This document shows positions 1 to 58,902 of a DNA stretch of 64,000 nt, piece by piece. Position 1 is the stretch's first letter. Each line of letters begins with the position of its first letter. The position numbers and the translations under genes are program-made. The notes beneath the pieces are model-generated. The model did not search any database and had not been told where the DNA came from. It saw only the letters and a program-made list of their open reading frames with translations. The DNA comes from Cirrosporium novae-zelandiae (taxonomy: Eukaryota), in assembly GCA_026023565.1 (NCBI GenBank), contig JAPETS010000006.1, positions 806,001-870,000 on the forward strand, in the 5' to 3' direction.

Positions 1-3000
1 GCCGTCTTTGGTCACTCCATGTACCTACAGATATTCAAAAAATCACGGTTAATCCCCTGTTCTGCAGTCCATCCCGTATCCATGAATCGCAGCTACCCTT
101 TGATTCTGTCGTGACCAAGGCTGACTCTACTGGCTTAATGGGAGATGTGGACGTATTCGCAGAAGATGGAAAGCATGCTATTTTACAGGTTGAGGGAATG
201 AGAGTCAAGCCATTCTCTCCGGCCTCGGAAGCTGATGACTATCCCATCTTTTCCGAGTTACTGTGGGATGTTTCTGACCCGTGCAGTATGGCAATTGAGA
301 AAATCCCACCATCAGCAACTGAGCGTGAGATTGCATATATCTGTGATAGAGCTGCATATTTCTATCTTTGTTCACTGGATAATCTCATCACACAAGAAGA
401 ACGAGAACGTACAGATTGGCATTTCCGTCGCTATCTTGAATTTGCAGCCCATATCAGATCCCTCGTCTCATCTGGCAAGCATCCGTTAGTAGAGAAGGCA
501 TGGGAAAACGACACGCGCGAGGAGATCACTGCTTTGATGGACAGGTACCCGGACTGTGTTGACCTCAGGGTGATGCGTGCTACCTGCGAGAATTTGCCCG
601 CGGCTATTCGCGGCCATACTACAGTTCTGGAGCATATAGCTAGCGATTTGGACGAATTTTATGAAAAGACCGTTGGATTTCCTCAGTATAACGCATACCT
701 TGGTCTTATGGCAGGACAAATCGCGCATCGCTATCCACATATGAACATACTTGAAATAGGTAAGCCTGAGTAATTTACTATTGGACAGTTACTACTCTCC
801 TTGCATGCTCTTCGTTAAGTCCCATTCTTGTACGATTGGTTTCTAATGTCTTGCAGGCGCTGGGACTGGGTCAGCGACGAAGAATATCCTGGAGAAATTA
901 GGACCTGCTTTCTCTTCATACACTTATACGGATATCTCTGCCGGTTTCTTTGAAAAAGCTTCGGATGTGTTCCGAGATTATGGCAATAAAATGAGTTTCA
1001 AGACGCTTGATATTGAAAAGGACGTCGAATCACAAGGCTTTGCCAAACATTCATATGACTTAGTGATTGCTTCGAACGTTTTACATGCGACAGCTGTCCT
1101 CAACGATACAATGAAAAATGCCCGAAGTCTTTTAAAGCCCGGTGGCAAACTTTTGCTACTTGAAGTAACGAACAACGACCTCGTCAGGGTGGGTACAATA
1201 TTTGGGGTTTTCCCAGGTTGGTGGGTTGGTGAAAATGATGGTCGTCGGCTGTGTCCAACTCTTTCCCCAGCACAATGGGTATCGCTTATGCGAAAAACCG
1301 GCTTCTCAAGCATTGACAACGTTATCCCTCCGCCTGATGACAAGGCAAGCACTTGCTCTGTTCTTGCTGCAGAAGCTGTTGATGACCGAGTCAACTTTCT
1401 TCGTCGGCCACTTTCATCTCCTGCAATGGGGTTAGAACCAACCGAGCTGGTGATTCTTGGTGGGAAGACGATGGAAACCTCGAGGCTTGTAGAAGATGCT
1501 TCTAGACTTCTGGGATGGCGGTACCCGAGAACTTTAACAATAGATGCCCTGGAAGACCTCACAGCAAATGACATGTCTCCAATGTGTACAGTTTTAAGCT
1601 TGACTGAGCTCGACGAACCCACCTTCAAGGGAATGACAAAAGAAAAGCTTGAATCTATGAAGAGGCTTTTCGACCAGGCTAGGAATGTCCTCTGGGTTAC
1701 CAGGGGATGCCGAGCAGATGAGCCATATTCCAACATGATGGTGGGGTTTGGACGGAGTTTGCGCTACGAAGTTCCTCACCTTCGACTACAATTTCTTGAT
1801 ATGCCCCATACTGAGAGCCCCGATACTGAAAAGATTGCAGAATCTCTGCTACGCTTACAAGTGTCCGAACAATGGGAGGACAATGAAGATTTACTATGGT
1901 CAACAGAACCAGAGCTTGTGCTTGAGAATGGACAAATTATGATACCACGACTTTATCATAAGAAGGATCAAATTTTGAGATATAATTCTTCGAGGCGTTT
2001 GGTGACTACAGAAGTTTCCCCACAGTCTTCTACTATCAAAATTGAACGCTCTGACTCGGCCTATTTCCTTGTGAAGGACGCTAGCCCCAGAGCATCACCA
2101 TCGCAGCGCCGCATCCAACTAACACACTCCTTGCTATCCTCCGTCATGCTTGCATCAGGATTATCTTTGTTCGTTGGCCTTGGAAAAACTGCTGATACTA
2201 GTGAGATGGTTCTTGTCCTGTCAACAAAGGCCGCCTCCATTATTGATATCCCCTGTAACTGGTTGTTTCCCTGCAACGTTCCTATGGGACAGGAAGGACA
2301 ATTCCTCCAATCAGCTGCGGGTGCTCTTCTAGTTCAATACCTTGCTACAGGAATTTCAGCTAATAACGTCTTGCTTGTCCATGAACCACAGCCATATCTT
2401 GCTCACGCACTTACTAAGTATGCTGCTGGGGAAGGCGTTAACATTATCTGCACTACATCCAAGCTAGAAGACTTGGCCAAAGGTTCTCAGTGGGTCTTCA
2501 TGCATCCTTCTGCATCCGACCGAGCTATTAGGGCACTGCTGCCAAAGAACGTGAAAGTGTTTGTGGACTTTTCAACGAATAAGAGTATAGATAGTCTTGG
2601 CTCTCGTATTTTGGCATGTCTTCCATCTACCTGCAAGGTAAAAAGTTCTGCCAAGCTTTTTGGCAAGGAGCCAGTCCTTCTATCTATTCATGATCACCAC
2701 ATTCCCGATCTCGTCCGGAAGTCCAATTTGCTCTCAATATCAGTAGCCCCTATTGATGATATATCGATGGAGGTGACTGCAGTTCCCCTTAGGGACATTC
2801 CGAATGGCACGGTCGAAAATAGCCCGGTGTCTATAGTTAACTGGACAGTAAATCCAACTGTACCGGTGAAGATTACAACAGCAAGTTCTATGACTTCCTT
2901 TGCCAGTGACAAAACATATCTACTAGTGGGATTAACAGGTGAGCTTGGACGATCTCTATGCCAATGGATGGTAGCCAGAGGTGCAAGAAATGTTGTCCTC

Positions 3001-6000
3001 ACGTCCCGATCCCCAAAGGTCGATAAGAGGTGGCTTGAGAACCTTGAAGCTACAGGGGCAACTATCAAGCTTATTCCCATGTAAGCTGGCAACCCAACAA
3101 ATCTTACTGTAGCTGAAACTGACAATCATAGGGATGTTACCAACAAACAGGTGGTAAAGGCAGTTGTCGATGAGATTCGTGACACATTACCTCCTATTGC
3201 CGGAGTTGCGAATGCAGCAATGGTGCTTGAGGATACTTTGTTCTTCAATATGAGCTTCGAGACTTTGATGAAGGTGCTGAAGCCTAAAATGGATGGGAGC
3301 AGATATCTTGATGAATTATTCCAAGAGGATACTCTGGATTTCTTCATCTTATTCTCGTCCTTGGCTTGTACTCTCGGAAATACTGGACAATCCAATTACA
3401 CAGCGGCGAATATGTTCATGACAGGGCTTGTGGCACAACGCCGTAAGCGTGGCCTCGCAGCGACAGCAATTAACTTAGGTGCAATAATTGGATTAGGCTA
3501 CATTTCCCGTGCCGGACGCCAAGCTGTCTCAGAGCAAACTTCAGTCTTCCGTTATCTACCAGTCTCTGAGTATGCCTTCCTTCAAATGTTCGCAGAGGCC
3601 GTTATGGCGAGCCCTGCCAATTCGAACCGGAATCCAGAGCTGATGGCTGGAATGGGAACTGCAAATGTTGATGACAAGGAGAAGGCGCCATGGTATTACA
3701 ACCCAATCTTTTCACATTTCATTCTCGGGGCCAAAAGTGCAGAATTGGAGAAGAGTGATAGAAAGGTTGTTGTTCCAGTTAAATCTCAGCTCTTGTCTGC
3801 TAGTACTACGGAGCAAGCCTATGAGATATTGAAATGTAAGTGTATAACCTTTGTATCCTTTCCATGTTCTTTAATAGCTTGGTTAAAAACTTTGCAAAGC
3901 TTCCTTCTCTACGAATCTCCAGTCTATCCTTCGCCTTCCTCCGGACAGTGTTAATGAGCAAATGCCGTTGATCGAAATGGGTGTTGATTCGCTGGTTGCA
4001 GTCGAAGTGCGGTCCTGGTTCCTCAAGGAGCTTGGCATTGACATGCCAGTCCTTAAAGTTCTTGGCGGTGCTGCTGTTGCGGATCTGTGTTCATATGCTC
4101 TTGAAAAACTCCCACATGAACTTATACCAAATATCCACCCAGCCGCTACTGAAACCCCGGCCACAAGCAAGCATGAAGATACAAAGGCCGAATCTAGAAA
4201 AGATCAGACAACGAAGCCCACGGAGCCAGAAATGACAAACCTTCGGCCGTCACTTCCCCGGGTACTGACCACAGACACTGTTTCATCTAGTGCCTCTGAG
4301 TCCCCACATTCTAGATCATCGAAGTCCTCTCCGGAACTATTGGTAACGCCGGACACCCCTTACTCGATTTCAGGGCTAGAATACCTGAAGCTCCCCCCTC
4401 CAAGTCCTGTTCTTAGAAGAGAGAAGATATCTTTTGCCCAGTCAAGGTTTTGGTTCTTAAAACGGTATCTCCAAGATCAGACATTATTCAATATCACACT
4501 GTTCATCCGTATGAAAGGAAACTTACGTGTCGCCGATCTTACGCATGCAGTGAAGCTCGTTGGGCAGAGGCACGAAGCTTTACGAACATGCTTCTTCGCA
4601 GAGGGTGATCAAATCTTTCAAGGCGTCCTCCAGGAATCAACTCTATATCTAGAACACAAAAGAATTACAGACACAAAGGAGGCGTTGGATGAGTTCGAGC
4701 TTGCGAGGAACCATGTGTTTGATCTGAACCATGGAAAGACAATGAGGGTCCAGTTATTATCCCAGTCGCCCAGTTCACATTACATTATCTTCAGCTACCA
4801 TCACATTGCTCTTGACGGATTCAGCTTCCAAGTTTTCTTGTCGGATCTAACTAAGGCATATAACCACCAATCTTTGAGCCTCCTTCGGTGCCAATTTCCT
4901 GAATATTCTGCAAGGCAGCGGAAAGAATTTGAGAATGGTGGAATGGAAAAGGAGCTAGAATTCTGGCGCGAAAAGCTCCGAGGCGTCCCGTCAACTATAC
5001 CATTGCTCCCCATGTCGCAGGTAAAATCTCGTCAGGCCTTAAGCACCTACGACTTCAACCGAGTAGACTTTAGACTTAACCCAGGATTGGCTGGGCATAT
5101 CAAAGAGACAAGCCGCAAGTATAAGGCAACCTCATTTCACTTCTATCTCGCCGTGCTGAAGGCTCTACTTTTCCGCTTCCTGGATACCGATGATCTCTGC
5201 ATTGGTATCGCCGACGCCAATAGGAACGACAGCGATGTTCTAGGAACGGTCGGACTCTTTCTAAACCTCCTTCCTCTTCGATTCAGATCAAAGGCGGAGA
5301 CATTCGTTGATGCAATCGGAGATGCTCGAAACCAAGTATATTCGGCTCTAGAAAATTCCAGACTACCCTTCGATGTTCTCTTAGAGGAGCTTGATATACC
5401 GCGATCGGCTACTCATACTCCTCTCTTCCAGGTCTTTGTCGACTACCGTCTAGGGCAACAAGAACGCCAATCTTTTGGCGAGTGTGAGAACTTGAGTGAA
5501 GAATGGCATGTTGGGAAAACTGGCTACGACCTTAGTGTGGATATTGTGGAGAATGCGGCTGGTGATTCAAAAATCACGTTCAGATCCCAAAAATATCTCT
5601 ACTCCTCAGGTGATGCCGAGATTCTAATGAAGAGTTATATCAGTCTACTGGAAGCATTTTCGAAAGACCCTTCCCTGCAACTGGAAACGCCTGAGCATTT
5701 TTCTCCTAGTGATATTGAAAAGGCAATCATGGTTGGACGAGGTTAGTGGCCCCTTTTTTCTTTATATTTTCTTTCTCTAATCTATCCTGATCGGGTACAG
5801 GTTCCGCGCTTCAGACAGATTGGTCTCCGACTCTTGTCCATCGTATTGATGATATGATAAATCAGCATAATACAGATATTGCAGTCAAAGATGGCATAGG
5901 AAACATCCTTACGTATCAGCAGATGGCTGAAAGGATCAATGCTATTGCCGCCGCTCTATTAGCCGCGGACATTACTCACGGATCTAGGGTGGTAGTATTT

Positions 6001-8703
6001 CAAGAACCAACATCCGATTGGATCTGCTCTTTGCTGGCCATCATGCGAGTAGGTGCAGTGTATGTACCGCTCGATTTGCGCAATCCACTCCCACGCCTAG
6101 CAAATATTGTCCGAACATGTCAGGCCAATGCAATACTTGCCCATGCAGCTACCGTGAAAGACGCTCCTGAATTAGGGTCGAAACCAACAATCATCAACCT
6201 CTCCACGATCCAGAAATTTGATACCATGCCAGTTCCAAATCGCGCCTCCCCTGAGTCACCCGCAGCAATCTTGCATACCAGTGGCTCCACCGGCACTCCC
6301 AAAGGTATAGTTTTGAGGCACTCCAGTCTCCGAAATGTCATAGAAGGTTACACCAAGGAATGGAAACTTGGCCCAGAAACAGTACTGCAACAGAGCGCTT
6401 TTAGCTTTGATTTCTCCATGGATCAGTTCTTCGTAGCTCTTGCAACCGGGGGGACGGTCTACATTGTTCCAAAGGCCAAGCGTGGAGATCCTATCGAGAT
6501 GACAAAATTAATCGCTGCAGAAGGAATCACGTATACGAAAGCAACTCCGTCGGAATACTCTCTTTGGCTGCAGTATGGAATGTCTAATCTTGCACAAGCA
6601 TTCGCTTGGAAAAAGGCTTTCGCGGGCGGTGAGAGATTGACGCCAACCCTCAAGAAGCAGTTCAAAGCTCTTGGGAACACGCAGCTGCAACTCTTCAACT
6701 CTTACGGACCAGCAGAGATTTCGGTTTGCTCTCACAAAATCAATATTCCATACATGAGCAGTCAGGATGACTGTCAAGAAGCTATCCCGGCTGGATATCC
6801 CCTACCTAATTATTCTGTATACATTGTGGATGAAAAAACAAGAAAACCTGTTCCTACAGGTGTCCTTGGAGAGATTCTGATCGGCGGTGCAGGAGTCGGC
6901 CTGGGCTATCTTAACAATGAACAATTGACGAAGAAAAAGTTCATTCCAGATGTATTCGCAGCGGCAGAATATGTTTCAAAAGGCTGGAACACAATGTACT
7001 GCACTGGAGACAGGGGCAAACTTCTCAGCGATGGAGCTCTTATGTTTGAAGGGCGAATTGATGGTGATACACAAGTCAAGATCCGAGGGATACGTATTGA
7101 GCTGCAGGACATTGAGAGTACCATACTTTCTACAGCAAAGGGAGTTTTGGTGGAGGCTGTTGTCTCCGTTCATGGAGACCCTGGACAGTTCCTCGTCGCT
7201 CACGTTGTATTCTCGCCAGATCACCAGCAGTTCAACCAGGACCACTTCCTAAACCAATTATCATCTAGTCTTCCTCTGCCGCAATACATGGTTCCGGCCA
7301 TGATCATCCCTTTGGATAAGATGCCGTTGAACAACCATTTCAAGACTGACAGGCCAGCCATCAACGCCCTTCCGCTTCCAGATACTCCAGCAAAGACCGA
7401 GGATGGTGCTAAACTTACTGGAGCTGAACTTCAATTGGAACAGGTCTGGGAAAAGGTTATTTCAAAGGATATCATCAATAGATATACATTTGATGCGAAT
7501 ACTGACTTCTTTCATGTTGGTGGAAATTCCCTGCTTCTAGTGAGGTTGCAAGCTTTAATCCGAGAGAGATTCGATGTCAACTTGCCTTTGATGGACCTAT
7601 TCGAGGCAAGCACACTTGGGGGAATGTCTACCAAGGTTCAACATGCTGCTTTGGGTAGCGCTATTGACTGGAAGAAGGAGACTTCGATATCTGATGTAGC
7701 TCTCCCACATACGTCTTTCCTTGAAGCTCAGGCCCACCGTCCTGGGGTTGACAAAAGCAAATCAGTGCTCCTTACTGGGGCAACAGGATATCTTGGGAAG
7801 AATATTCTTCTCCAGCTTGTTGCAGACAATAGCGTTTCAAAAATACACTGCGTCGCTCTTCGCAAGGCTATGCTACCAGTTGATTCGGATGGAAAGATTG
7901 TTATCCATCAGGGTGATTTGACAGGTCCTCTTCTTGGGCTCTCGGAGAAGGAGTTCGGAGCTTTGGCCAGCGAAGTTGATGTTATAATTCATAGTGGTGC
8001 TAACCGCTCTTTCTGGGATTCCTATCAGTTGCTTCGCCAAGTCAATGTTATGTCAACTAAGGCGCTCTTGAAGTTGGCCCTTCCCCGGAAGATTCCTATC
8101 CATTTCATGTCCTCCGGGGGGGTATTGGATTTCAACATAGCTAGAAACGTGAAGAATGAAAGTGAAGTGTCCGTCATTGGCCTCCCTCCTACTGATGGCT
8201 CGAATGGGTATGTTGCATCCAAATGGGCTAGCGAGAAATGTCTTGAAAATGCTGCCAAGAACCTAGGACTACCGGTCTGGATACATCGTCCATTACCCGT
8301 CATAAGCAAGCAAAATGATTTATCTGAACCTGTCTTGCAAGAATTTCTCCATTTCTCCAAGGTAATGAAAACGGTTCCCGCTTCAGATGGCTGGAGAGGC
8401 CATTTTGACTTCATCCCCGTCGACGAGATTGCAAACAGGGTTTGCACTACCGCCACAGCGCAAGGTACGATGTCATCTTCGGCATTAGTCAAGTTTGTGC
8501 TCCACAAAAGTACTATCAGAATCAACAACGAGGATATAGGAGAGTATCTCGGAAAGCATTGCACCGAAACTGAAGGATTTGACAGTTTGCCTGGTCCAAA
8601 GTGGATGGGGAAGGCAAAAAAGGAAGGGTTTGGGTATTTAATCGCGGCGCAGGAGTTAATCGTTAATGGGCCGGAGGGGAAGGAGTTTGTCTCGAGAAGA
8701 TAG
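1..8703 (+). CDS. Hybrid iterative PKS-NRPS, 5' part outside window (DH end, C-MT, ER0, KR, ACP, C, A, T, terminal R/Dieckmann domain)
   Basis: Frame open from the window edge (RLWSLHVPT). MT SAM motif ILEIG|AGTG spans intron ~760-856. KR motifs VGLTGELG and GQSNYTAAN. ACP MGVDSL. C domain HHIALDG. A domain HTSGSTGTPKG, NSYGPAE, TGDRG, QVKIRGIRIELQDIE. T domain FFHVGGNSLL. SDR-like LTGATGYLG...YVASK. Further GT-AG introns near 3081-3131, 3836-3899 and 5742-5800. Confidence 0.97.
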
Positions 8704-9207: not shown

Positions 9208-10236
9208 CTATCCATCCGCATCATTACCTCCTCCGGTCCTTCTTCTTTTATACAGGTCCTTGCATGCAAAGGTGATTTCACGAAGGGAGATGGTAAGAAT
9301 CAAGCACAAAAGATACAGCACTACCAAAGAGATGCACACCAGGACAACAACGGAGAACCACTTCGAGACTTGGGCAAGGTTCACCCAAGATTGGTTTAAT
9401 GGGATGACCGGTTGTACAGCCAATGCTACTTGCATTGCACTTAGAGCCACGCTAAAGACGCCGAAGATGAACAGCAGTGGTCCGTAGAATCGAGCAAAGT
9501 ACGCTCCATATTGTCCGTACACTTTCTGATACGTGAAGCGCGGCCACAAAAATATCTTAGACCAGAAATTCAATCGAGTAAGCCGCAGTTCGCCGTATTC
9601 ATAGCGCGGTGAGACATCCCGGTCTTCTATGGATTCAAATGCTTTAATAAAGTTGACGAACTTCAAATAGCTGACTCCTTTCGGTAGCAATCCCAGCCTG
9701 TCGTGTCTGGCGAGGATATAGTCAGATTTGTGACGAATTAGATAAGAGTATGATCGAAGAAACCCTAATGCGGCTCTTACAAGATCCCTTCTCGATGTCT
9801 GCGGAATGGGTGATTGATTGTTGACGAAGTAGTATTTCCAAAAGTCGTGAGATAGCAGATACTTTGGCATAGGCTTGATAAAGACGCGGTCATATATCCA
9901 CACAAGATGCAGCCCTGGCTTTTCAGTTATGGTAATCTGACGTCCCCGGATGATCTGATGTGTGAGAGATGAGACGTGAGAGCTATCTTGCTTTGCGACC
10001 AGCCAGAGATGAGGAGCGATTTTGTTCAGATCCTCAGTCATGAGATCCTCATTGAGATATTTTTCCACTGAATCCGTGTCATGCAAGGCGATTCGTGGTT
10101 GTCCAGGAAGATGAGTGTTCGTATTGTTGAGAGCATCAGGAGGAACTTGCGGAGGCAACCGTCTCTCAAGGTTACCATGGGGATTGTGAAGCTTGTGATA
10201 GAGCTCATCCTCGGTGGTGAATGGAACCGCATCCAT
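9208..10236 (-). CDS. DUF6601-like fungal membrane protein (intronless, two C-terminal hydrophobic helices)
   Basis: 342-aa ORF with motifs HLWL...HQIIRGRQITITEKPGLHLVW..DRVFIKPMPKYLL, ALGFLRSY..LIRHKSD and RYEYGELRLTRLN, which I recognise from this family. Confidence 0.8.
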   Translation of the reverse strand: MDAVPFTTEDELYHKLHNPHGNLERRLPPQVPPDALNNTNTHLPGQPRIALHDTDSVEKYLNEDLMTEDLNKIAPHLWLVAKQDSSHVSSLTHQIIRGRQITITEKPGLHLVWIYDRVFIKPMPKYLLSHDFWKYYFVNNQSPIPQTSRRDLVRAALGFLRSYSYLIRHKSDYILARHDRLGLLPKGVSYLKFVNFIKAFESIEDRDVSPRYEYGELRLTRLNFWSKIFLWPRFTYQKVYGQYGAYFARFYGPLLFIFGVFSVALSAMQVALAVQPVIPLNQSWVNLAQVSKWFSVVVLVCISLVVLYLLCLILTISLREITFACKDLYKRRRTGGGNDADG

Positions 10237-11012
10237 AGCTATATTTTCAATCGCATCAGACCTTTCTCAGACCTCCCAACCTTAGAGAGCGCCTCCAGCG
10301 ACTATGATATGCTTTTAGCACCTGTAAATGTCAACAGTCCCATGTGCTTATTATATGCAATTGCTGTCCATAGCCTTTGTATCTTAGCTCCCGAAGGAAT
10401 CGCTAACAAGCAATCAGCCAATCTACTCTTGACTATGTATGCCTTTCCTAGCCGCACGCATGAAGCCAACAACCGAAAGCAGCTAACAGCGCTTTCAACA
10501 AGGGTATTAAAAATTCTCAATCCCGTGGTATTAGCAAATATGAGCACGGTAGGGAACGATCGGTGATCTTGATTACTATCCTCTTTTTTTTGTGTAACCT
10601 ACATAAAAAATATTTGTGAATAATAGGCCGAGTTCTCGCGTCTGCTTCGGCTTTCGAAACCGGCTAAGGGCCTAACTAGTATCCCTTGACCTTTCATTGA
10701 TATCGGCAGGCTTAAATGCATAGTCTAGCTATTATCAAAAATAATTCTCTATCGGTATGGTAGCTGATCTTCTTTCGTCCAACTTATCGTTAAACATCTA
10801 TTTAATCGCTAGTGAAGGGAATGGACTAGACCGACGGTTACATGATACAGGCCGCACTCCGCGCGGAACAAAATTTTACTTCTCCGATTCACAACACCTT
10901 GTCTTATCTCCACGTGATATCACGTGAAGATAAGATAATGACTAATCTCTACGAAATAAAAAATATACCAAATATTTACCTAGGTACTTCAGTAATATAC
11001 AACGCTGTGAAT

Positions 11013-46243: not shown

Positions 46244-49200
46244 ATGGCTCGGAGGAACGGCACCATCAACACGCGAAATGCTTCAGAGAGTTCCAAGGCT
46301 TCGAGCAGCAGCAGTTTGCGATCAGACGACACTGTGACGGAGGGTATCCCCGGAGCTGAAATGTCTCGCGCGACCACAAAGGATGGCATGAAACACCGGT
46401 TAGTACTTTCTGTCGCTTTACTACCAGGACAACTTCAGTCGACTTTAAATCCTTTTCATCTTCCACTATGAACCAAGCATGTGCATAGTTAATACCATCT
46501 CATCTACTTTCAGCGCATGGAAAGGTTGTAGTGAATGGATGGATGATTTCATGGCTACCATTTGGATAGCTCACCTCATTCTCACCTATCTCGATATACA
46601 ACCCTAAATTGGGGTTGAGACCTTGCAATCATCTATTTTCATGTCTTCTAGTACCGGGAAACCTAATGCTGACGCATTACTGCTTAGACTTCAGGAAGAT
46701 GCTCCGGGCCCACAATTTGCAGCCGAATCTAGCTTTCCGACAATACCATCTGCGACCAGCCCCGCGAAGAAGGCAAGAAGTGCCAAAGAGTTCGCGAATT
46801 ATCGGAGAGAGCTTTCTGTGCTGGAAACGGGAGGACCTTCATCGCAGAGTCAATCAGCTGCAGCTGCGCAAAATCCTCATATTATAACTTGGACAAAAGA
46901 TCGCCCTCAACCAATGTATATGACCCAGTTTGGAAATTTCTTCAACCCCGATTCTTTGGATCCACAAATCTCCCCAACCTTCCGTCCAGGAACATCAAGA
47001 ACCGGCATCAGTGACTCTCCTGATCATGGCTATTTCGGCGATGAGCGCAGGCCATCGGTTGCCAGCAACACCACTGTAAGTAGTCAAGGATCAAGATCAA
47101 GCACAAGTGGAGGTCGGTTTCATAAGCGATTACAAGGATTTTTTGGAGACGAGTTCCCTGGTCATTCCCAGCATGGTTCTGAAACCAGTTTGCCAATAAA
47201 TCTTCAGGGCGGTAGTCGAGATGCATTTAGACCACGAGATCGAACCAACTCGGTCAAAACCAATGGTACTGCTGATAGGCCAATTTCTCCGTCCAGCTCA
47301 AGACCAAGGACACCGGTACCATCGAGCGATGTCACTCCGTGGGTTTTTCAAAATCCAGATGTAAGTTCTTATTTCGGTTTATTTGGTCGTTGTCACAAGC
47401 TCCGCTCGTTATTGATACCGCTTTGCTTGCGAGACTGTGCAAAGACTCTATGTCCTTGTAAGATATGCTGTATATCTGCCGACTAAGTATTAAACTGTCC
47501 TGGTGTTTTCCCCTTGCTTGATACATGGATAACCAAGCATCATCACCATGCTTGCTTTTATATACTTCTGTTGAATATTTTTTGTGCTTGGAACTTTTGA
47601 GGTTGGCGGGATTACAGTCCATTCCGGATCCCGACAATGTTATTCTCCGGAAGGGAGTCGCGTTGAACCCTTCTTTGTACTTTCCATTTATACTGATATT
47701 TTATTACTTCAGGATATTTCCCAGTACGGCGATGCTCCGATAAGAGAATTGCCGACAGGCCCGGACAAAATTCGCTATGCAGCATCCGAAAGTAACGCAC
47801 CTATAGAACAAAATCATCATAAGATACATTTTCCAGGACATAGGCATTCAAGAAGCAAGGAAGAGACATCAAAAAGTAAAGATATTAGCCCAGGATACCC
47901 TCTTCGCCCAACAACCAGCAGAGATGAGACTAGCGTAAGTCTCCGACGGCTAAGAGACTACGGTATAAACCCTCGATCTGTATCAAAAGCCCGCTCAAGT
48001 AGTCCAACCCCAAGTACCGTCAGTGCCATGAGCCGGGAAACGCAACAGGACCAAAGATCTTTGAATGGTTCCGCAAAACGATCATTGTTTGACAAGTTAC
48101 GACGACATAAACCTGCTGTTGCTGACACCCTCAAGGCCCTGCCAGGTTCCTCGCGATCCCTAGGGGAGAGCAGCAGACAACCACGAATGGCAAGGCCAGA
48201 GCCTTCTCCCGGGAACAAGCCTGGTGATCGGAATGCATCCCCTTTCGAATCCCAAAAAGGATCCGAAGCCGCCGGCGTAGATCAGTCACAGCAGAGAAAA
48301 GACGCAAATAAAAATGCTGTCCACGCACGGTTCAGAGGGAAGCGAAATGTCAGTTACGAAACTGGTGGTGGTAAAGATGTCAAAACGCGATCTGGCTCAG
48401 AGGCGGGAGCTGAAAATTCTTTATGGGACCTTGATACAGATTTAGACCATATGGAAGGTATTATCAGCCAGCCGGTTCCTGGAACTCCTCCTGGAAACCC
48501 TATTTTTGCCGGATACCCAGCAAGTGATGAGGGACAGACTGGACCAAAGAATCCCATCTTGCTAAACGAAACGGGGGCCTGGGATGCCCCTGACAGCTGG
48601 GCTGTCAAGAAAGTCGATGAGACCGTGGAAAAGCTTGGGGAAATTGACGAGGAGGGTATCCCCCAGAAACTCGAAGAGGACACGACACCGCATTGTGTGC
48701 GAGTATTCCGAGTTGACTCGACTTTTGCAACACTCTCAACAAGTGCCAATACAACCGTAGCCGACATCCTCCAAATACTTGGGCGAAAATCATTTCTCCA
48801 GGATGAGCTGGGAAATTATCAAATCATCATGCGCAAACATGATCTCCACCGCCAGCTCCAACCCGGCGAGCGACCAATCGCGATGCAGAGGCGCCTCCTA
48901 GAACAAGCCGGGTATACTTCCAACGACCGGATTGAAGATATCGGCAGGGAAGACAACAGCTATCTAATTCGGTTCACTTTTGTACCTACTAAGCTCACTG
49001 GCTTCTACAGTCTCGACAGGGACCCGGGGTTTGGTAAATCTCAGAAGTTCAGCCACGTTGACCTGCAAGGTCGAAATCTTGCCGCCATTCCTATCTCTTT
49101 GTATCAAAAGTCAGCTGACATTGTTTCCTTGAACCTATCTCGAAATCTCGCTCTGGATGTGCCGAAGGATTTCATCCAGGGGTGTATCAATTTACGGGAG

Positions 49201-52200
49201 ATCAAATACACTGGAAATGAAGCTTGGAGGTTGCCTCCTAGTCTAAGCTTGGCAAGCAGGTTAACTGTCCTTGATATCTCCAACAACCGTCTCGAGCAGC
49301 TGGAGCATGCTCACCTGGACCAGCTCTCTGAGCTCATTAGCATCAAACTCTCTAATAATAAGCTCAAATACCTTCCGTCTTATTTTGGAAAGTTTAGGTG
49401 TTTGCGCAACCTCAGTCTGTCTTCGAATTCATTTGAAGAAGTCCCAGAGTTTTTAGGACAACTCAACTCGCTAGTCGAATTGGATATTAGTTTCAATGAG
49501 ATAAAGACATTGCCCAAATTGGACCACTTGGTATCATTGGAAAGACTATGGGCGACTAATAATAAGCTTTCTGGAGCCTTCGATGACAGCTTCAAGAATC
49601 TTGCAAGACTGAAGGAGCTTGACCTACGCTTCAATTTTATCACCAGTATAGATGTTTTTTCACATCTCCCACGTCTAGAACAACTGCTCGTTGGCCATAA
49701 TGCAATCTCCAGGTTCGAGGGGACCTTTAACAAGCTCAAGGTTCTACAGATGGACCATAATCCTACAACGAGATTCCACATCACTCAACCAATTCCAACG
49801 CTTACCATCCTTAATATAGCCTCCGCAAAGCTCTCCCAACTTGACAAAGAGTTGTTTGAGCGGATCCCAAATGTCACCAAACTGAATCTCGACAAGAATC
49901 ACTTCAGCAGTATTGCCAGCGAGATCAGCAAATTAGGACGCCTGGAACATCTGAGTATGGCTAAAAATCCTCTTAACAATCTTCCCTCCCAGATTGGCTG
50001 CCTCACCGAGTTGAAGTTTTTGAATCTTCGGGAGTGCAATCTCAAACTCCTCCCTCCTGGTATTTGGTTCTGTTTGAAATTGGAGACCCTCAACATCTCT
50101 TGCAATGTCCTTGATGCTTTCCCTAAGTTCACTGCTGCCACGGCACCACCTGATTCCACACAGTCGAGCAAACTCGGTACCCCAGCCACAACTCCAGGTC
50201 TTAATTCCAGTCCCAGTTTTGAAGAGCTTGGCAAGCTTGAAGAATTTGGCCAAAGGCGACCGAGTCAAGCATCAAGTGGGTTAGCATCCAGTGGGATGTC
50301 ATCAAGTGGGTTCTTGGGGGTTTCCTCTGGTACATCAATTCGAAAGGCTTCGGTGGCATCATCCCAGGGATACGGGGCAAGAAAGGTTTCTCGAACACCA
50401 ACAGAAGGGACGGTTACCGGTCGCAAGGACTCCAGTCACTCGAATCGCCTGGCGACAACGTTTGCAGGCAGCCTCCGGAATCTTTATCTGGCGGATAACA
50501 GGCTGGATGATGATGTCTTCCGGGAACTTTCCATCTTACCGGAGTTGAGGGTCTTGAACCTGTCGTATAACGATCTTACCGACTTCCCTCAAGGTTACCT
50601 CAGACGTTGGCCAAATCTTGCGGAGCTATATTTGTCCGGGAACGAGTTGACGTCGCTTCCTTCAGATGATCTAGAGGATAGCAGCACTTTGAGAGTGCTT
50701 CATATCAACGGAAATAGGTTTCAAGTTCTTCCCGCTGAACTCTGCAAGGTTAAGAAGCTGGCGACCCTGGATGTTGGTTGCAATTCGCTTAAATATAATG
50801 TTTCCAACTGGCCTTATGATTGGAACTGGAACTGGAATCGAAATCTCAAATATTTGAACTTCTCCGGTAACAAGAGGTTGGAGATCAAGCCCAGCATATC
50901 TTTTGGCGCTGCTATTGGAACAACAAGCAAGGATCTTACAAGTTTCAACTCCCTCACATATTTAAGGGTCCTGGGTTTGATGGATGTTACTTTGACCAGC
51001 CCCATGATTCCAGATCAAACCGAAGATCGCCGGGTTCGAACTACTGGTTCAATGGTCGGTGCAATGGCGTACGGAATGGCAGACACACTGGGCCGTAATG
51101 AGCATTTATCGACTATAGATCTTGTGATTCCAAGGTTCCGCAGTCATGAAATGGAAACTGTAATTGGAATGTTTGACGGTCAGTCATTGTCAAGCGGAGG
51201 TTCCAAGATCGCCAAATACCTTCATGAAACATTCCAATTCCAGTTTGCCGATGAACTGGACAGGTTGCGAACCGACAATGGCGAAACCCCTATAGATGCT
51301 TTGAGAAGAACATTTCTAGCCGTTAACAAGGACCTAGCATCTGCCGCGAACATGTCAACAGACGAGAAAGAACTTCGAACCCCTTATGCCCACCGGGGCT
51401 CAAGTGCTGCTCAGGTTCTCAGCAAGGATGACTTGGACTCTGGAGGTGTCGCAACTGTTCTTTACCTTCGAAACATGGAGCTTTTTGTTGCAAATGTTGG
51501 CGATATTCAAGCAATGCTTATGCATACAGATGGAAGCTTCCGATTTTTAACCAGGAAACATGACCCCGCTGAGACAGATGAACGAAAGCGTATCCGCGAT
51601 GCAGGAGGATATGTCTCTCGTCATGGCAAGCTCAACGATATTCTTGACGTGTCTCGAGCGTTTGGATATTTCCAATTCATGCCGTCCGTTATGGCTGCTC
51701 CTCATACCTTGCAAACGATGCTCAAGGAGCAAGATGAGATGATCCTTCTTGCTACGAAAGAGCTTTGGGATTTTGTAACCCCGGATGTTGTTGCAGACGT
51801 GGCTCGGTCCGAAAGAGGAGACCTTATGCGCGCTGCCCAAAAGGTTCGAGATCTAGCCATTGCCTTTGGGGCAACGAATAAGATCATGGTCATGATGATT
51901 AGGGTTAGTGACCTGAAGAAACGAGACCGGAATCGGTTTAGAGGCCAAAGCATGTCCTTTGGAAACTTCCTCGGTGATGAACAATTTCTACCCACCAAGC
52001 GTCCGAGGCGTGCTAGAGACGGCCCGGCAGACTCTACTCTTGCTAGATTGGACCAAGAAGTGGACGCGCCAGTTGGAGATGTTGCTATCATTTTTACCGA
52101 CATTAAAAGCTCTACAGCGCTTTGGGAAACCCATCCAATCGCCATGAGATCTGCTATTAAAACCCATAATGATCTTATGCGAAGACAGTTAAGGAATATA

Positions 52201-53214
52201 GGTGGCTACGAGGTCAAGACTGAGGGTGACGCTTTCATGGTTTCTTTCCAGACTGCAACCTCGGCACTTTTATGGTGCTTCTCTATGCAGAACCACTTAC
52301 TTGATGCAGAGTGGCCCAGGGAAATTCTCAATTGCGACTCTGCGAAAGAAGTTACCGACAATGATGGCAATATCATATACCGAGGTTTGTCTGTGAGGAT
52401 GGGTATTCACTGGGGCGCCCCAGTTTGTGAATTAGACCCAATAACGAAACGAATGGATTACTTCGGACCTATGGTCAACAGAGCATCTCGTATCTCTGCT
52501 GTTGCAGATGGTGGCCAGATTACCGTCTCGGGCGACTTCATCACCGAAATCCATAGAGCTCTTGAGTACTACGCCAACTTCGATCGATCAGCATCTGAAG
52601 GTTCTGACGAGTCATTTGTTGATGATGCGATCGGTCAGATAATTCGGCGCGACCTTCGAAATCTAAGCAGCCAAGGTTTTGAGATCAAAGACCTAGGAGA
52701 ACAAAAGCTGAAAGGTCTTGAAAATCCTGAGCTCGTGTACTTGATGTATCCTCATGCTCTAGCCGGTCGTGTTCAAGCTCAGGAAACGAGAGAAGAAGTC
52801 GAGACGGATGACAGTGCAGATCCGGTCACTCTATCTAGAGATAGTCAATTGGGCATCGAAGCAGACGAGGTTTGGAGTCTCTGGAAGGTCAGCCTACGTT
52901 TGGAGATGCTTTGCAGTGCTCTCGAGAACCCCCAGGCAAATGTATTAAGAGTACCAGAAGAGTTTGTTTTGGAAAGGATGAAGCAGCGCGCCGGAGAGGT
53001 TACAGATGGCTTCCTGGTGAATTTCATGGAGCATCAGGTGTCACGCATCGAGACATGCATTTCTACGCTCAATTTACGACATCTAGTGAAACCCTTCAAC
53101 CCCTATAGTCGATTGTCAGACTACGCAGCTCCGATTTCAGAGATATTCCAAAGCTTGGCAGAGCAGCTGCAAGAATTACAAGCACTCAAGGAAAGAGTGG
53201 GCCCTGATGCTTGA
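46244..53214 (+). CDS. CYR1: Fungal adenylate cyclase (RA, LRR, PP2C-like, class III cyclase domains)
   Basis: Exons 46244-46398, 46688-47360 and 47713-53214 splice in frame. WDAPDSW, RA-region HCVRVFRVDSTF, many LRRs, PP2C-like region, catalytic FTDIKSST / VKTEGDAFM / DYFGPMVNRASR. Confidence 0.97.
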
Positions 53215-54121
53215 TAAATGGGTTGGTACGGTATGGTTTGCAGCATTTACGCTTCTTTAGCAAGGTGCTTGGTGTCGGTAGGAAAGCAATTGGGTTTCTA
53301 ACTCTTGGTTAGATTCTGGGACGATTTTTTGATGGATGTTATGGTGGCTTCGTTGGATTATTTTTCACTTCCTGGTTAGCAGATGCATCAACGGCGGTGT
53401 TGACTGGCAATGATTAGGCTCTGCTTCTCTGACGATTGGATGGAATTATGACTTGAGCGTTCGTTCATGCAGGTCTGTGGATAAGCGGCTCCACCTCTGC
53501 CTCGTGTGCTTATTTCTTGAGGCATACATATATTCGCTCAAGCACCTACAAATACCTAGATGCTTTTTTTATTGTTGTCGATTAATTACACGACCTAATA
53601 ATTTCTACCTCAGGCCGGTTCAGGATCCGTACAATTTGTAGGCTAATGATTTAATTAATAGTTCAAGCAGGATGGATGCCTGAGGGGTGCCTGAGGGGTG
53701 CCTGAAGGTACTGGGATATACCCGGATATACCTGGGGGATAATTTTGGGTTAAAAGTGTGAAATGCTCAAAGGATAATACAAGATTTTGTCAAGTTGGCC
53801 GTGCCCCTCGGGGGCTTCCCCCCCTCGGACGGGATGTTTATTCCCGGGTGAGGGTCAAGGGGTGGGACGGCATGGAAGGGTTAACAGCGGAAGTTTCCGT
53901 GGACAAGGCGTAGTGACAGGGTTTTGTATGGGTTCGGGTATTAAGCGAGACAAGCCAATCTAATGAGTTTTGAGGGCTGAAGAGGAATTTTTCAAAACTG
54001 GGATCTAACTTTCCCCCGCCACCCTCGACTCCATATCAAAGTCTGCTCAACCCCCTCGTCCCCCTCAACCCCCTCAACCCCCCTCTGCCCCCCCCCCCTC
54101 GGAACTTATCCCCTTGCCCTT

Positions 54122-56082
54122 ATGGCTACTTCAATGACTGCTACAAGCGCAGGGAATGTTCGTGAATTGCAGGTAGGAGATGTTTTTGACTCCATTAAGG
54201 ATGCCAAAGCCGTCATTCGATCTTGGGCCATTGCAAAAGGCGTATCTTACAAGAGTTTGAAAGATGAAAAACATCGTTGGGTTGTTGTCTGCAGAGACAA
54301 AACCGGCCAATGTCCCTTCCGACTTCGAGTTAGTTATAGTACCAAAGAAGATGTGGCAAAAATCACCATTATCGATCCCCATACTTGCCCTCCCGAGACT
54401 CATATCGGTTGGAAGCCCATTCAGCCTACCAATGGTTTTACCCATGTCACCGAGCGTCCTGAACCCGATCCGAAGAAACCTCGGAGAACTTATCGCAAAC
54501 GCGCTGCAACAGAATTATCTTCAATGATTGAAGCTTTGCCTGCTCCTCTCACTTATCCTTTATCATCTGAAGCTGCTCTTAAAGCACAGTATGTCGGCAG
54601 ATCTCTTAATGAAGTTCCCACCCCGGCAGCCGTAATTGATGTTGCCACTACACGTCGGAATTGTGATTTGATGCTTGAAACTGCTCATGCTCTGGGCATC
54701 TCTTTACGAGCTCATGTGAAAACTCACAAGGTCAGTTTCACATTGGATATTTTTTTTCTCATATATATTGTATCATTATGCTTTATATTTTTCTATTTTT
54801 GTTTTTTATTTTTTTTTTTATTTTTTCCAGAAATTACCTTGGAAATTTCTTAACATTTATGGAAGGGTTGACGCGTAACCTAGAAACGACTAACATCTTG
54901 CAGACAACTGAATTGACGCGTCTACAAGTGGGAGATGATGCCGATGTTAAAATTGTAGTCTCCACGCTTTCCGAAGCCGAAAACCTAATTCCATTTTTAT
55001 CCGAATGTCAGCGTGACGGTAGGAAAACCAATTTGCTTTATGGACTTCCGCTTCCTCCCTCTTCGGTGCTCCGGCTAGGACGCATCGGAAAGCAACTTGG
55101 TCCCGGAAGTATTTCTGTCATGGTTGACCACCATGAACAGTTACATGCCTTGAAAGCCTTTGTTGGCGCGGCAGGCTTCCACGCGCTAGTGTTTGTTAAA
55201 GTTGACACAGGTTACCATCGTGCGGGCATCGAGGCTCGTTCTCAAGAACTCAAGGCTATTCTTCGAGCCTTCCACAAAGACACTGCTCTCCAAAAAAGTG
55301 CCGAGCTGTATGGATTTTACAGCCATGCAGGGCACAGTTACGGTGGGAACATGGAGACTGAAGCTATGAATTACCTCGTGCAAGAACTGATGCGCGCCGA
55401 AGAAGCTGCAACGGCCGCTCAACAAAAATATTTTGCGGATAAGAGATTTATCATATCCGTTGGTGCTACTCCCACAGCTACTTCGTTGCAGAACATCCTA
55501 AACACGGATTCCTATGCGACAGAGCCCCAGATGCTCAAGATGACTATCGAGCGAATCAAACTTTCACATGATATTGAGGTTCATGCTGGTTGTTACCCAT
55601 TGCTTGATATGCAGCAGCTAGCATCAAAAGCCCGGCCGACTTACAACAATCGTTTTGAAACTCTTCTCTCTTATGATGACCTTGCTTTCACCATCCTGGC
55701 TGAAGTTTCCAGTCTTTACACTGATCGTCCTGAAACGGAAGCACTCGTGGCTGCTGGATCTCTTGCGCTTGGCCGCGAGCCATGCAAATCCTATCCCGGG
55801 TGGGGCATTGTAACCAATTGGGGGATGCCGCTTGAAAATAACGGGGAGTCGGGGTGGATGGTAGGCCGGCTAAGTCAAGAACATGCCATCCTGACGAAGT
55901 TCAGGTCGGCCGGGCAAAATGTTCCTGACTTGCAAGTGGGACAGAGGGTGAGAATTATTCCCAACCATGCTTGTATTGCCGGGGCAGGGTTTGGGTGGTA
56001 TCTGGTTGTGGACACAAGCAACCAAGGAGAAAGTGATGGTGACTATATTGTTGATGTTTGGATTCGGTGGCGTGGCTGGTAA
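54122..56082 (+). CDS. DSD1: D-serine dehydratase (fold-III PLP/Zn) with N-terminal MuDR-transposase-like zinc-finger domain
   Basis: Exon 1 54122-54730 ends LRAHVKTHK. Phase-0 intron 54731-54903 (GTCAGT...GACTAAC...CAG). Exon 2 TTELTRLQ, KVDTGYHRAG, YSHAGHSY, SVGATPT, LSQEH, PNHAC. Alternative start at Met135 (54524) is possible. Confidence 0.9.
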
Positions 56083-57069
56083 CACGTCTCAGCGAGACAG
56101 GTGTTTGGGTGGCCGCCATTGGAGTTTAGGTTACGTAGTTACGCCTTACGATGATATTTTGTCCACAGATCCCCCTCATTTGAGTTCACATTTTGATCAT
56201 GTCATAGCTAAGGTCAAGCAATACCCTGATAATATGAATACTACATTACTGCAATAGTGTCGGCAGCAAAGAAATCAAAGAAGATGTTTAACTTATAGAG
56301 GCGTTTATGGAGTATTTATAATTAAAAGGTGGTGGTAATGTAGGTGGAAGCTGATGGGGCTGATAAAGGTATTAGAGCTATTAGAGCTATTAGAGCTATT
56401 GAAATTGCTGACAAGGCAAGACAAGCAGAGCGAAGAGGGAACCTGAGAGCCTGAGGAGTCCAGAAGAGGAAAAGCGTTATGGTCAAACGCCAAGATAAGC
56501 TCATCTATTCATCTCATCCCAATAACTATTTCCAGCTCTAAATCCAACTCGAGGTGGGTTTTGACTGTCTGCAATTGCCACCACCCAAGTTCCATGTCAC
56601 AGCTCATCGCATAATTCTGATTCTGATCTTTCTGGCTGTCCCGCATACATAATAATTACAACATGGCGTCAACATCTTCATTCATGAGATAGGAACAATA
56701 TCTCGAGTACCTCTCAACTTCTCAATATCTCGCAATATCAACTATTTCTCTGACACTACCGGCGTTCTATGAATCTTTTGCTCTGAGACGGTTGAAGCGC
56801 ACAATATCGCTAGGGAAACACCAGAGAAACAGTCATGTTAGTGTTAGATATCAAATCGCGATCATTTCAGTATATAATTCTCTGAGTACAAGGACCAAGG
56901 TACAAGCCTCTGGTTGTATTCTTTGTTAATTCCAATCTACACGTCGCCAACGATTTTTTCTCCTCGTCGTCGTAGCCCATTTAGCATACGCTGCCTAGTC
57001 ACTGGATTCAACAACCCACGACTGGCCCGCCAAAGCTTCAATCATATTTATATAATATCTACAACCACA

Positions 57070-58902
57070 ATGCTCGGTTCAGCTCTATTGCTCAAGGCTC
57101 CTGAAGTCAATCCAATAAATCAGAAAGCACGTTCTATTCCTGCGCTCAATCCTATCAACATATATGGAAGAACTTTTTTGTTTAGTTGGTTGGGATTTTT
57201 CATAGCATTTTGGTCATGGTATTCGTTTCCACCTCTTATCAACGTGACCATCAAGAAGGATTTGCATCTTACCCAAGTGGAAATTGCCAATTCCAATATA
57301 ATTGCCCTGGCTGCAACCCTTCTCGCTCGTCTGGTTACTGGACCTGCATGTGACCGATTTGGTCCTCGTTTGACCTTTGCTGGGTGTTTGTTTGCTGGAT
57401 CAATTCCTACTGTGCTCGCCGGCGCAGTCTATGATGCCAGAGGGCTTCTAGTCCTTCGATTTTTTGTTGGGATTCTTGGTGGTGAGTTTAGCTGTACAAT
57501 CGTGTAGGAGACATGAGCGCTAACACATACCAGCCTCGTTTGTGTAAGCTCACATCTGAACTGATTAATCTCACCCAAATCTAATATAATACAGCCCCTG
57601 TCAGGTGTGGACTACCGCCTTCTTCGATAAAAACGTCGTAGGAACAGCAAATGCTTTTACAGCTGGCCTAGGCAACGCTGGTGGAGGCGTCACTTACTTT
57701 GTGATGCCCGCAGTTTATGACTCCCTCGTCTACACACGTGGTCTCTCTCCACATGTAGCCTGGCGTGTCACATTCATTGTCCCCTTTATCTGCATCATCT
57801 TCGTTGCAACTCTCATGCTCCTCTTGTGTCCGGATACCCCCACTGGTCCCTGGTCTGACCGTAAGGCTGTTACTCAGCAACACCTTGTCGACCATGGCCT
57901 CATCATAAACGACATAGTCGATGGTCCCAGTAATCTCACCACTAAACCCATCCACTCAACCGACACATCCGAACCCCCAGCCATCAACGAAGAGAGGCTC
58001 GAATCTCAACCCGGCACTTCGTCCCCCACAAAAAATCCACCCAGCTTCGCGGCCGGGAAAGCTCGTCTATCCTCACAGGATATGCTTGACACAGTCCGCG
58101 GTGAACTAATCGTGAAGCCGTCCTGGACCGAAGCCTACCACGTCTCCATCTCCCCCCAAACCCTCGCCATCGCATCCTGCTACTTCTGTTCTTTCGGAGC
58201 CGAGCTCGCCATCAATTCGATCCTGGGCGCTTACTATCTCCACAACTTCGAATCCCTCGGTCAAACGGGGACAGGCAATTGGGCAGCCATGTTTGGACTC
58301 TTGAACGTGGTGTTCAGACCGTTGGGCGGAATCATCAGCGATGCGATATACAACTACACGCCGACGAGACTATGGGGAAAGAAATATTGGATGCATTTCA
58401 CGGGTATCATACAAGGGGCCTTTCTACTTGTTATTGGATTGATAAATCCAAAGAAGCAAAGCGAGATGTTTGGGCTTATTGCAGTAAGTAGTTTTTTTTT
58501 TTTTTCAGCGCCTTTACACTCGCTTGAATAAGAAACCTAACTCATTATATGGAACCACATCTAGGGCCTAGCATTCTTCCTCGAAAGCGGTAACGGCGCG
58601 AATTTCAGTTTAGTCCCACACGTACATCCATATGCCAATGGTGAGCTTCCTCTTCCCCTTTCCCTTCCTTTCCCTTTCCCCTTCCCCTCATACTAAACCC
58701 CCCCTCCCTATCCATAGGTATCATATCCGGCATAACCGGCGCAGCCGGAAACCTCGGCGGGATCGTTTTCGCAATCATATTCCGCTACCTAGACAAAGAC
58801 TTTGCAAAAGCGATTTGGATCATTGGTGTTATTACTATTGGGATTAATGTGGGCGTTTGTGGGGTTCGGCCGATTCCGGGGGGGCAGGTTGGGGGACGGT
58901 AG
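57070..58902 (+). CDS. MFS high-affinity nitrate transporter (NRT2/NNP family)
   Basis: [29 protein letters not shown], nitrate signatures AGLGNAGGG and [24 protein letters not shown]. Four introns, including a 10-nt micro-exon at 57534-57543. Confidence 0.95.

Follow-up and report, generated by a model that had tools for sequence, protein, structure and literature searches.

This work describes a gene at positions 54122 to 56082 of a 64,000-nucleotide stretch of the genome of Cirrosporium novae-zelandiae (GenBank assembly GCA_026023565.1, contig JAPETS010000006.1, positions 806,001 to 870,000 of the forward strand; hereafter the window, whose own coordinates are used throughout). The gene joins in frame a complete zinc finger of Mutator-type transposases to an intact enzyme of the D-serine dehydratase family, and all other parts of the transposase have been lost. 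We slightly favor the reading, drawn from sequence comparisons, that it is a translated host-transposase fusion gene. The 5′ end of a Mutator-like gene, comprising its own start codon and a complete HxC-type WRKY-GCM1 finger and cut just after this finger, would have been joined in the same frame to the ancestral start of a gene of the D-serine dehydratase family. Transcription would most likely begin 5′ of 54122 and the first AUG would then give a 595-amino-acid (aa) protein in which a flexible, basic linker (some 35-50 aa) connects a DNA-binding zinc finger to an enzyme using pyridoxal 5′-phosphate (PLP) and zinc. A plain shorter enzyme, translated from Met135 through an internal transcription start, may coexist with this long form. 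The parts of the gene and the block that precedes it are the following:

53640-54121, + strand: non-coding block 5′ of the first ATG, with a G+C content of 0.53-0.555 compared to 0.41-0.47 in its flanks
54122-54730, + strand: exon 1 (203 aa), opening with the ATG at 54122 and stop-free up to a GTCAGT donor at 54731
54122-54412, + strand: WRKY-GCM1 zinc finger of Mutator type (HxC family), complete and with its start codon (aa 1-97), delimited by Pfam, alignment and fold
54413-54523, + strand: linker, aa 98-134, predicted to be disordered, with the basic stretch PKKPRRTYRKR at aa 117-127 (54470-54502)
54524-54730, + strand: predicted ancestral start codon Met135 and first part of the enzyme through the HVKTHK motif (aa 198-203; K200 at 54719-54721), delimited by the ortholog alignment
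54731-54903, + strand: T-rich intron (donor GTCAGT, branch site ACTAAC, acceptor CAG)
54904-56082, + strand: exon 2 (392 aa), which completes the PLP barrel and adds the D-ser_dehydrat domain at the C-terminus; the TAA stop codon is at 56080-56082

Spliced together, the two exons encode 203 + 392 = 595 aa, and this product is identical to a database protein (P0003; 100% identity, 100% coverage) that was retrieved by word-index search from 5.8 billion protein clusters. This protein is a "hypothetical protein" of a C. novae-zelandiae metagenome-assembled genome (MAG), with precomputed domains PF03108, PF01168 and PF14031. The joined exons reproduce it exactly; the CTAAC of the branch site sits 10 nucleotides (nt) 5′ of the CAG acceptor. 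The original prediction had proposed an uninterrupted exon at 54122-54730, spliced to a second exon to give a protein of about 595 aa, together with the metal-ligand motif of the finger (C57-x6-C64-x22-H87-x-C89) and the stretches PKKPRRTYRKR, HVKTHK and PNHAC; exons and protein agree with the database entry, and the four motifs all lie where they had been placed. Alternative splicing of exon 1 was considered and rejected, as its sole donor-like site (54589) falls in conserved QYVG codons; no donor-like site occurs within 54122-54523. The model of the full-length protein shows two folded parts separated by a stretch of low confidence (predicted local distance difference test, pLDDT, <50 at aa 93-118).

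The first part of the protein is a genuine Mutator-type zinc finger, by hidden Markov model (HMM) and by fold, as had been proposed. PF03108 (DBD_Tnp_Mut) matches aa 16-80 with an E-value of 4.7e-10 and 39.4 bits (cut-off 25), over positions 4-66 of the 67 of the profile, and PF08731 (AFT) is also matched, just above its cut-off (22.3 bits vs 21.6). Six residues (C57, C64, F66, H87, C89 and H94) are invariant in an alignment of 24 sequences, i.e. the query and 23 relatives, and the query retains all of them. The AlphaFold (AF2) model of the finger, built on the alignment with these 23 relatives, contains one helix (aa 25-39) and four strands (aa 43-48, 52-57, 67-73 and 78-85), the block means of its pLDDT being 86-97 over aa 11-90 and 73 over aa 91-100. 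Its top Foldseek match is the Aft2-DNA complex 4lmg (E 4e-4, probability 1.00, TM 0.43-0.49), while WRKY and FLYWCH domains are found among the weaker matches. By the criteria given in the available part of Babu, Iyer and Aravind 2006 (PMC1702500), namely a short spacing of the two cysteines, ligands of the HxC form and a helix at the N-terminus, the finger belongs to the HxC type of the WRKY-GCM1 family.

An exhaustive HMMER search with the finger on 1.84 billion representatives retrieved 200 proteins at E ≤0.001, and among the best 150 of these 200, which were listed, the closest non-self matches show 33-47% identity. A Pfam scan of 42 matches detected PF03108 in 33 of them (23.7-60.1 bits, median 40.1, the 39.4 bits of the query being typical) and the catalytic domain of Mutator-like elements (MULEs) in 11, mostly accompanied by SWIM; two of the 42 are unrelated repeat proteins. 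The N-termini of the relatives lie 1-50 aa before the VGxxF motif, and the piece found in the fusion opens with the native N-terminus of the family. The codon statistics of the finger are host-like, with a codon-frame score (11.2) that corresponds to the 26th percentile of coding windows and is reached by none of 3000 non-coding windows. The leave-one-out HMM rank of the finger (1 of 111) was discarded as evidence, the set having been picked by likeness to the query. The same finger family has another unusual partner outside the window, in a 525-aa protein (P0094) encoded by a contig of 2330 nt, where DBD_Tnp_Mut is joined to an HNH_2 endonuclease domain.

The second part of the protein, aa 135-595, is by all its alignments an intact and normally conserved enzyme of the D-serine dehydratase family, i.e. 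a PLP enzyme of fold type III. This agrees with the original prediction, which described an intact D-serine dehydratase with a normal N-terminus. The enzyme matches PF14031 (C-terminal D-ser_dehydrat; 1.7e-24) and PF01168 (Ala_racemase_N barrel; 9.3e-12), and from residue 157 onward it can be aligned with two solved structures, 3anu, the D-serine dehydratase of chicken (E 7.6e-22), and 3wqc, a D-threo-3-hydroxyaspartate dehydratase (E 4.1e-23). Its HVKTHK block is aligned with the same block in both structures, and its PNHAC block (aa 556-560, nt 55960-55974) with PNHAC of 3wqc and PYHAC of 3anu; we take the residues of these two blocks to bind PLP and zinc. The pLDDT of the enzyme model is mostly >90 from aa 150. 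The enzyme was compared to 30 orthologs hand-picked from the listed homologs to span classes: of the 73 columns in which 29 or more of the 30 share the same residue, it keeps 72, the sole exception being a G to A change at 531. It shows no sign of relaxed or accelerated change, since its mean identity to these orthologs (49.3%) is within their own range (42.4-51.3%). Met135 lies in the same first alignment column as the start methionine of all 30 orthologs, none of which extends upstream of it, and is, according to this alignment, the ancestral start codon of the enzyme. It should also be noted that the two best solved relatives differ in their substrates (D-threo-3-hydroxyaspartate and D-serine) and that D-serine as the substrate of the present enzyme is a family-level prediction.

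The homology to the finger relatives ends at about residue 98-104, and in the alignment with these 23 sequences the fusion protein lacks the conserved stretch (…SV.xL…SYxQxWR) that most of them have behind the finger. When ten full-length or partial MULE transposases were compared to the window by tblastn, the only matches were located at 54125-54556 and involved their N-terminal finger, the homology stopping at 54403-54433 for nine of the ten queries. No MULE/TnpA-type catalytic domain (PF10551, PF00872) and no SWIM zinc finger (PF04434) was found in the 595-aa protein or in the 37 long open reading frames (ORFs) of the window. No terminal inverted repeats bracket the finger piece (the region 53200-56400 contains just two 18-nt pairs, at 78%), no notable direct repeats were seen on its flanks, and 53215-54523 has no second copy in the window (blastn matches all ≤28 nt). 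The earlier claim that neither a DDE domain, a SWIM domain nor a terminal inverted repeat lies nearby was thus upheld by the long ORFs, the repeat searches and the ten transposases. The finger piece is a fragment and not an autonomous Mutator-like transposon.

The block that precedes the first ATG (53640-54121) may be a promoter or leader that arrived with the zinc-finger piece. The codon-frame score of 53981-54121 (−4.6) is non-coding-like, and only two upstream ORFs, both tiny, start in the block, at 53928 and 53963. It contains tandem repeats at 53677-53705 and 53714-53732 (TGCCTGAGGGG x2.6 and GGATATACCC x1.9) and, just 5′ of the fusion ORF, a C-rich tract at 54037-54099 with a 9-10-nt repeat (CTCAACCCC x4). 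They may be promoter elements, or else remnants of subterminal repeats from the transposon that was lost. CT-rich (pyrimidine) tracts were also tried as a promoter mark of the genes of the window, but few tracts passed and the one before 54122 falls below the 90% threshold, so no argument was drawn from them.

The junction was also found in an assembly made by another program. A Logan contig of 9095 nt spans 53000-54780 with 0 differences and includes the 3′ end of the upstream adenylate cyclase gene, the finger, the linker and exon 1 of the enzyme. A second Logan contig covers 54834-56300, at a depth of 349.4 compared to 355.6 for the finger contig, and the only break between the two is the T-rich tract of the intron, which was skipped as a repeat. 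The Logan run may be the source of the window itself, in which case its reads are not independent whereas its assembler is; these contigs exclude an assembler-specific chimera and do not cover a read-level one. Among the sequencing runs listed as containing words of this sequence, none is an RNA run; one DNA run may be the source, and two others from its study contain almost none of these words. According to the name that its source gives to the identical protein, the window comes from a MAG, which brings in an assembly artefact as an explanation: finger and enzyme would come from different places or organisms of the metagenome and would have been joined by the assembler. Given the junction contig devoid of differences, the near-equal depths and the restriction of the break to the intron T-tract, such an artefact is extremely improbable.

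Between the finger and the enzyme, the linker (pLDDT 52-59 in the domain model) matches no relative, either in the 24-sequence alignment or in the tblastn comparison with the ten MULE transposases. It is open in two of the three frames, comparable intergenic stretches being open in a given frame in 14.6-20.4% of cases, and its codon-frame score is 1.9. Its basic cluster, which was noticed after the fact, has seven lysines or arginines in 11 residues, a composition found in 3.2% of open intergenic windows and in 0.12% of open shuffles. The linker would have come from one of two sources, the tail of the donor gene or what used to be the 5′ leader of the enzyme. Since the tails of 7 of the 23 finger relatives carry basic clusters, it may derive from the donor gene and not from the old leader of the enzyme, a derivation that no alignment supports.

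Several features argue for a translated fusion. Both parts are intact, the Pfam score of the finger being at the median of its relatives and its six invariant residues being kept. Its clean borders (a native N-terminus and an end just past the last conserved residue) fit selection for the whole domain. The 97-codon frame of the finger is unbroken although no close source copy was found among at least 150 listed HMMER matches or by the word-index search; since no close copy of the finger is known (33-47% identity for the best listed ones), a recent insertion from an active family is not supported. The enzyme, for its part, has clearly been kept in use, to judge from its normal rate of change and its 72 conserved columns. 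Furthermore, the linker is basic, and the capture of such fingers has precedents, both in Zn2Cys6 proteins of Aspergillus and in the fusions described in the available part of PMC1702500. The host-like codon-frame score of the finger, compared to the non-coding-like score of the stretch before the ATG, and the Logan contig that spans the junction count on the same side. A further argument comes from start codons. Eight out-of-frame ATGs are present within 54134-54524, the last one at 54444, and only the final 78 nt before Met135 are ATG-free; a clean mRNA for Met135 therefore needs a leader shorter than 80 nt that starts inside the foreign piece. One upstream ORF of 87 codons in the +1 frame (54264-54527, with further in-frame ATGs at 54351, 54432 and 54444) ends in a TGA that overlaps the start codon Met135 (ATGA). 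Were transcription to begin within the finger region, such an overlap might couple termination to re-initiation at Met135.

The same structure can be explained by an untranslated relic and an over-long gene model, which we regard as a serious though somewhat doubtful possibility. What remains of a decayed Mutator-like element, its first ~100 codons, would then lie within the enzyme gene's promoter or its leader, in frame and stop-free by chance; the mRNA would start downstream, a normal enzyme of ~461 aa would be made from Met135, and the 595-aa protein would exist in annotation only. The observations given in the rest of this paragraph and in the following one weigh against a translated fusion, and several of them speak directly for such a relic. 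Met135, which aligns with the start of all 30 orthologs, is still an ATG exactly at the ancestral start, as expected from continued use of this start or from a young event. No listed ortholog has a finger-bearing extension. An open in-frame join is not a very rare accident, as its chance is 1/3 x 0.146-0.204 for a stretch of 37 codons, i.e. ~5-7%, and accidental joins of this kind are expected across many genomes. A second frame of the linker is likewise free of stops, and the codon-frame score of 1.9 is weakly coding. The finger may also have a source among unannotated or unassembled transposon copies of this genome, which would allow a recent insertion. Finger-only relics are plentiful in related fungi, and the best 14 non-self HMMER matches (14/14 at E <1e-13) are devoid of a transposase core or too short for one. 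It should be added that the 595-aa model comes from the automatic annotation of a MAG, a type of annotation that favors the longest open frame.

The search for a second example points in the same direction. All 25 other matches of exon 1 cover only its last 23-34%, i.e. the enzyme end. The whole protein has 838 homologs, the best 120 of which were listed; the other 119 of these cover 64-77% of it and none carries PF03108. Among the 18 listed HMMER matches of the finger of at least 400 aa, none of the 17 that were scanned (a 6703-aa match was left out) has the enzyme domains. A metagenome scan with the fusion protein gave a single locus in 158 candidate stretches, with the enzyme part only (aa 136-202, 45%). 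When the finger alone was compared to longer proteins by word-index search, the fusion protein itself was the only one returned among 248 candidates. The finger-enzyme fusion is thus a singleton in the word-index, HMMER and metagenome searches. This singleton status says little about its age or about selection, since the lineage has no sequenced close relative (the closest enzyme ortholog is only 52-53% identical).

The relic explanation has its own difficulties. Against it stand a finger frame that is unbroken and consensus-like with no known close source copy and the preservation of exact domain borders, and the basic cluster of the linker is unusual for non-coding DNA. In addition, because only the 78 nt before Met135 are free of ATG, it places the promoter and leader of the enzyme inside the foreign piece. 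A third explanation supposes two separate products, a small stand-alone finger protein, comparable to its relatives of 80-300 aa and made for example from a transcript with another end or another splicing pattern, and an enzyme from a transcript for Met135, the continuous frame being incidental. The closest finger relatives are indeed mostly finger-only proteins of 86-468 aa, and stand-alone fungal versions are reported in the available part of PMC1702500. However, the finger frame has no stop codon before the enzyme, the region 54122-54523 has no donor-like site and the ~110 nt between the finger and Met135 are too little for a terminator and a promoter, which makes two products quite improbable.

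If the translated fusion is the correct reading, its enzyme part would stay catalytic, and the finger and the basic linker PKKPRRTYRKR would bring it to the nucleus and to DNA. The fusion would then act as a substrate-sensing regulator or merely as a relocated enzyme. The original prediction had likewise suggested a possible nuclear, DNA-tethered PLP enzyme or D-serine-responsive regulator. A more specific proposal, unlikely as it stands, is a one-component regulator: a dimer of the enzyme (dimerization being presumed from its relatives) would carry two DNA-binding fingers, and the binding or turnover of D-serine or of a related D-amino or hydroxy acid would alter its DNA binding. A metabolic enzyme would in this way sense a D-amino acid directly where promoters lie; the sites bound might be relic ends of Mutator elements dispersed through the genome.

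The enzyme part shares PF01168, PF14031 and the HVKTHK and PNHAC blocks with the eukaryotic D-serine dehydratase of chicken (3anu) and with 3wqc. It differs from the family by its 134-aa N-terminal extension, which is present in none of the 30 aligned orthologs. We take yeast Dsd1p to be another eukaryotic D-serine dehydratase relative. As regards the finger, the recruitment of transposase fingers as regulators is well described, in plants for instance (FAR1/FHY3). The iron-responsive yeast factors Aft1/Aft2/Rcs1 provide the best structural match (4lmg) and a Pfam AFT match, but they show only 16-18% sequence identity to the finger and are conserved regulators without enzyme domain. The finger family of the present gene also occurs in three gene models from Aspergillus section Nigri (P0130, P0306 and P0308, from A. 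brunneoviolaceus, A. aculeatinus and A. fijiensis), in which DBD_Tnp_Mut is N-terminal to Zn_clus and Fungal_trans. In their cluster, three of the four members carry the finger on a Zn2Cys6 transcription factor, and in the member from A. aculeatus (516 aa) neither the finger nor the Zn cluster is present. A host transcription factor may here have acquired a finger of this family in a capture that was then conserved. The three proteins resemble the present gene by the position of the finger at the host N-terminus and differ by their partner, which is a transcription factor and not an enzyme.

The available part of Babu, Iyer and Aravind 2006 (PMC1702500) reports stand-alone fungal WRKY-GCM1 proteins derived from MULE transposases, the transposase part being truncated or lost in fungal members of the HxC family. 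It also presents Aft and Rbf1 as fungal regulators derived from transposase fingers, Aft being placed in an insert-containing family. Compared to these truncated or stand-alone HxC fingers, the finger described here is joined in frame to a metabolic enzyme, and in one genome only. The same source describes a related WRKY-GCM1 family fused in fungi to an isochorismatase domain, proposed to be a small-molecule sensor. These fusions resemble the present one by a transposon-derived DNA-binding finger carried on an enzyme domain, by their occurrence in filamentous fungi and by the idea of an enzyme acting as a sensor. As far as a comparison by description only can tell, they differ by their insert-containing finger, by another enzyme fold and by their presence in several fungi, whereas the present fusion, a singleton, combines an HxC-type finger with a PLP enzyme of fold type III. 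Vertebrate host-transposase fusion genes (bioRxiv 10.1101/2020.05.07.082677, available part) likewise result from the capture of a transposase domain by a host gene and have a new architecture. They mainly consist of host exons spliced to transposase exons and involve regulatory domains, whereas the gene described here has an enzyme as partner and a join that is internal to a single exon and sits on the host start codon.

Our literature search found no paper joining D-serine dehydratase, zinc finger, fusion and fungal, and nothing relevant on isochorismatase, WRKY and transposase fusions beyond PMC1702500; a preprint on a screen of F-box and transposable element domains mentions neither MULE nor fungi. 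The original prediction knew of no described example of such a gene. In view of the finger-isochorismatase fusions described in the available part of PMC1702500, this did not hold for fungal finger-enzyme fusions in general; it appears to stand for the D-serine dehydratase partner. The kind of gene is therefore already known, while the PLP D-serine dehydratase partner and the join on the start codon appear to be new.

The 37 long ORFs found across the 64 kb correspond to ordinary fungal genes, among them those encoding a hybrid polyketide synthase-nonribosomal peptide synthetase (PKS-NRPS), ADE2, a cytochrome P450, a tRNA synthetase, an adenylate cyclase and a major facilitator superfamily (MFS) transporter. 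The fungal adenylate cyclase gene (47575-53211, + strand) is a single frame of 1879 codons with G-alpha binding, RA, LRR, PP2C and cyclase domains and ends 908 nt before the fusion ORF. Directly downstream of the fusion gene and on the same strand, the MFS transporter gene (56878-58528, + strand) has at least two exons; a perfect 9-nt tandem repeat (TATTAGAGC x3.4) is located at 56370-56400, ~290 nt 3′ of the stop codon of the enzyme. The 3′ part of the PKS-NRPS gene (3-8700, + strand) runs off the start of the window and encodes, in successive frames, dehydratase, methyltransferase, KR, ACP, condensation, adenylation, thiolation and reductase domains. Near it lie a DUF6601 gene (9211-10266, − strand) and the P450 gene (30856-32320, + strand).

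What this gene means depends on whether the long protein is made. If it is not, the gene is a warning that in-frame transposon relics inflate the number of "novel architectures" in automatically annotated fungal MAGs. If it is made, this gene would illustrate cleanly, in nature, how a fungal metabolic enzyme captured the DNA-binding domain of a transposase. It would also give a single-exon view of the birth of a fusion, in which the native transposase start and finger are placed directly on the host start codon. Overall, the fusion would then be a testable candidate for transcription control by an enzyme acting as a sensor in eukaryotes, an idea raised in 2006 for the finger-isochorismatase fusions (PMC1702500, available part).

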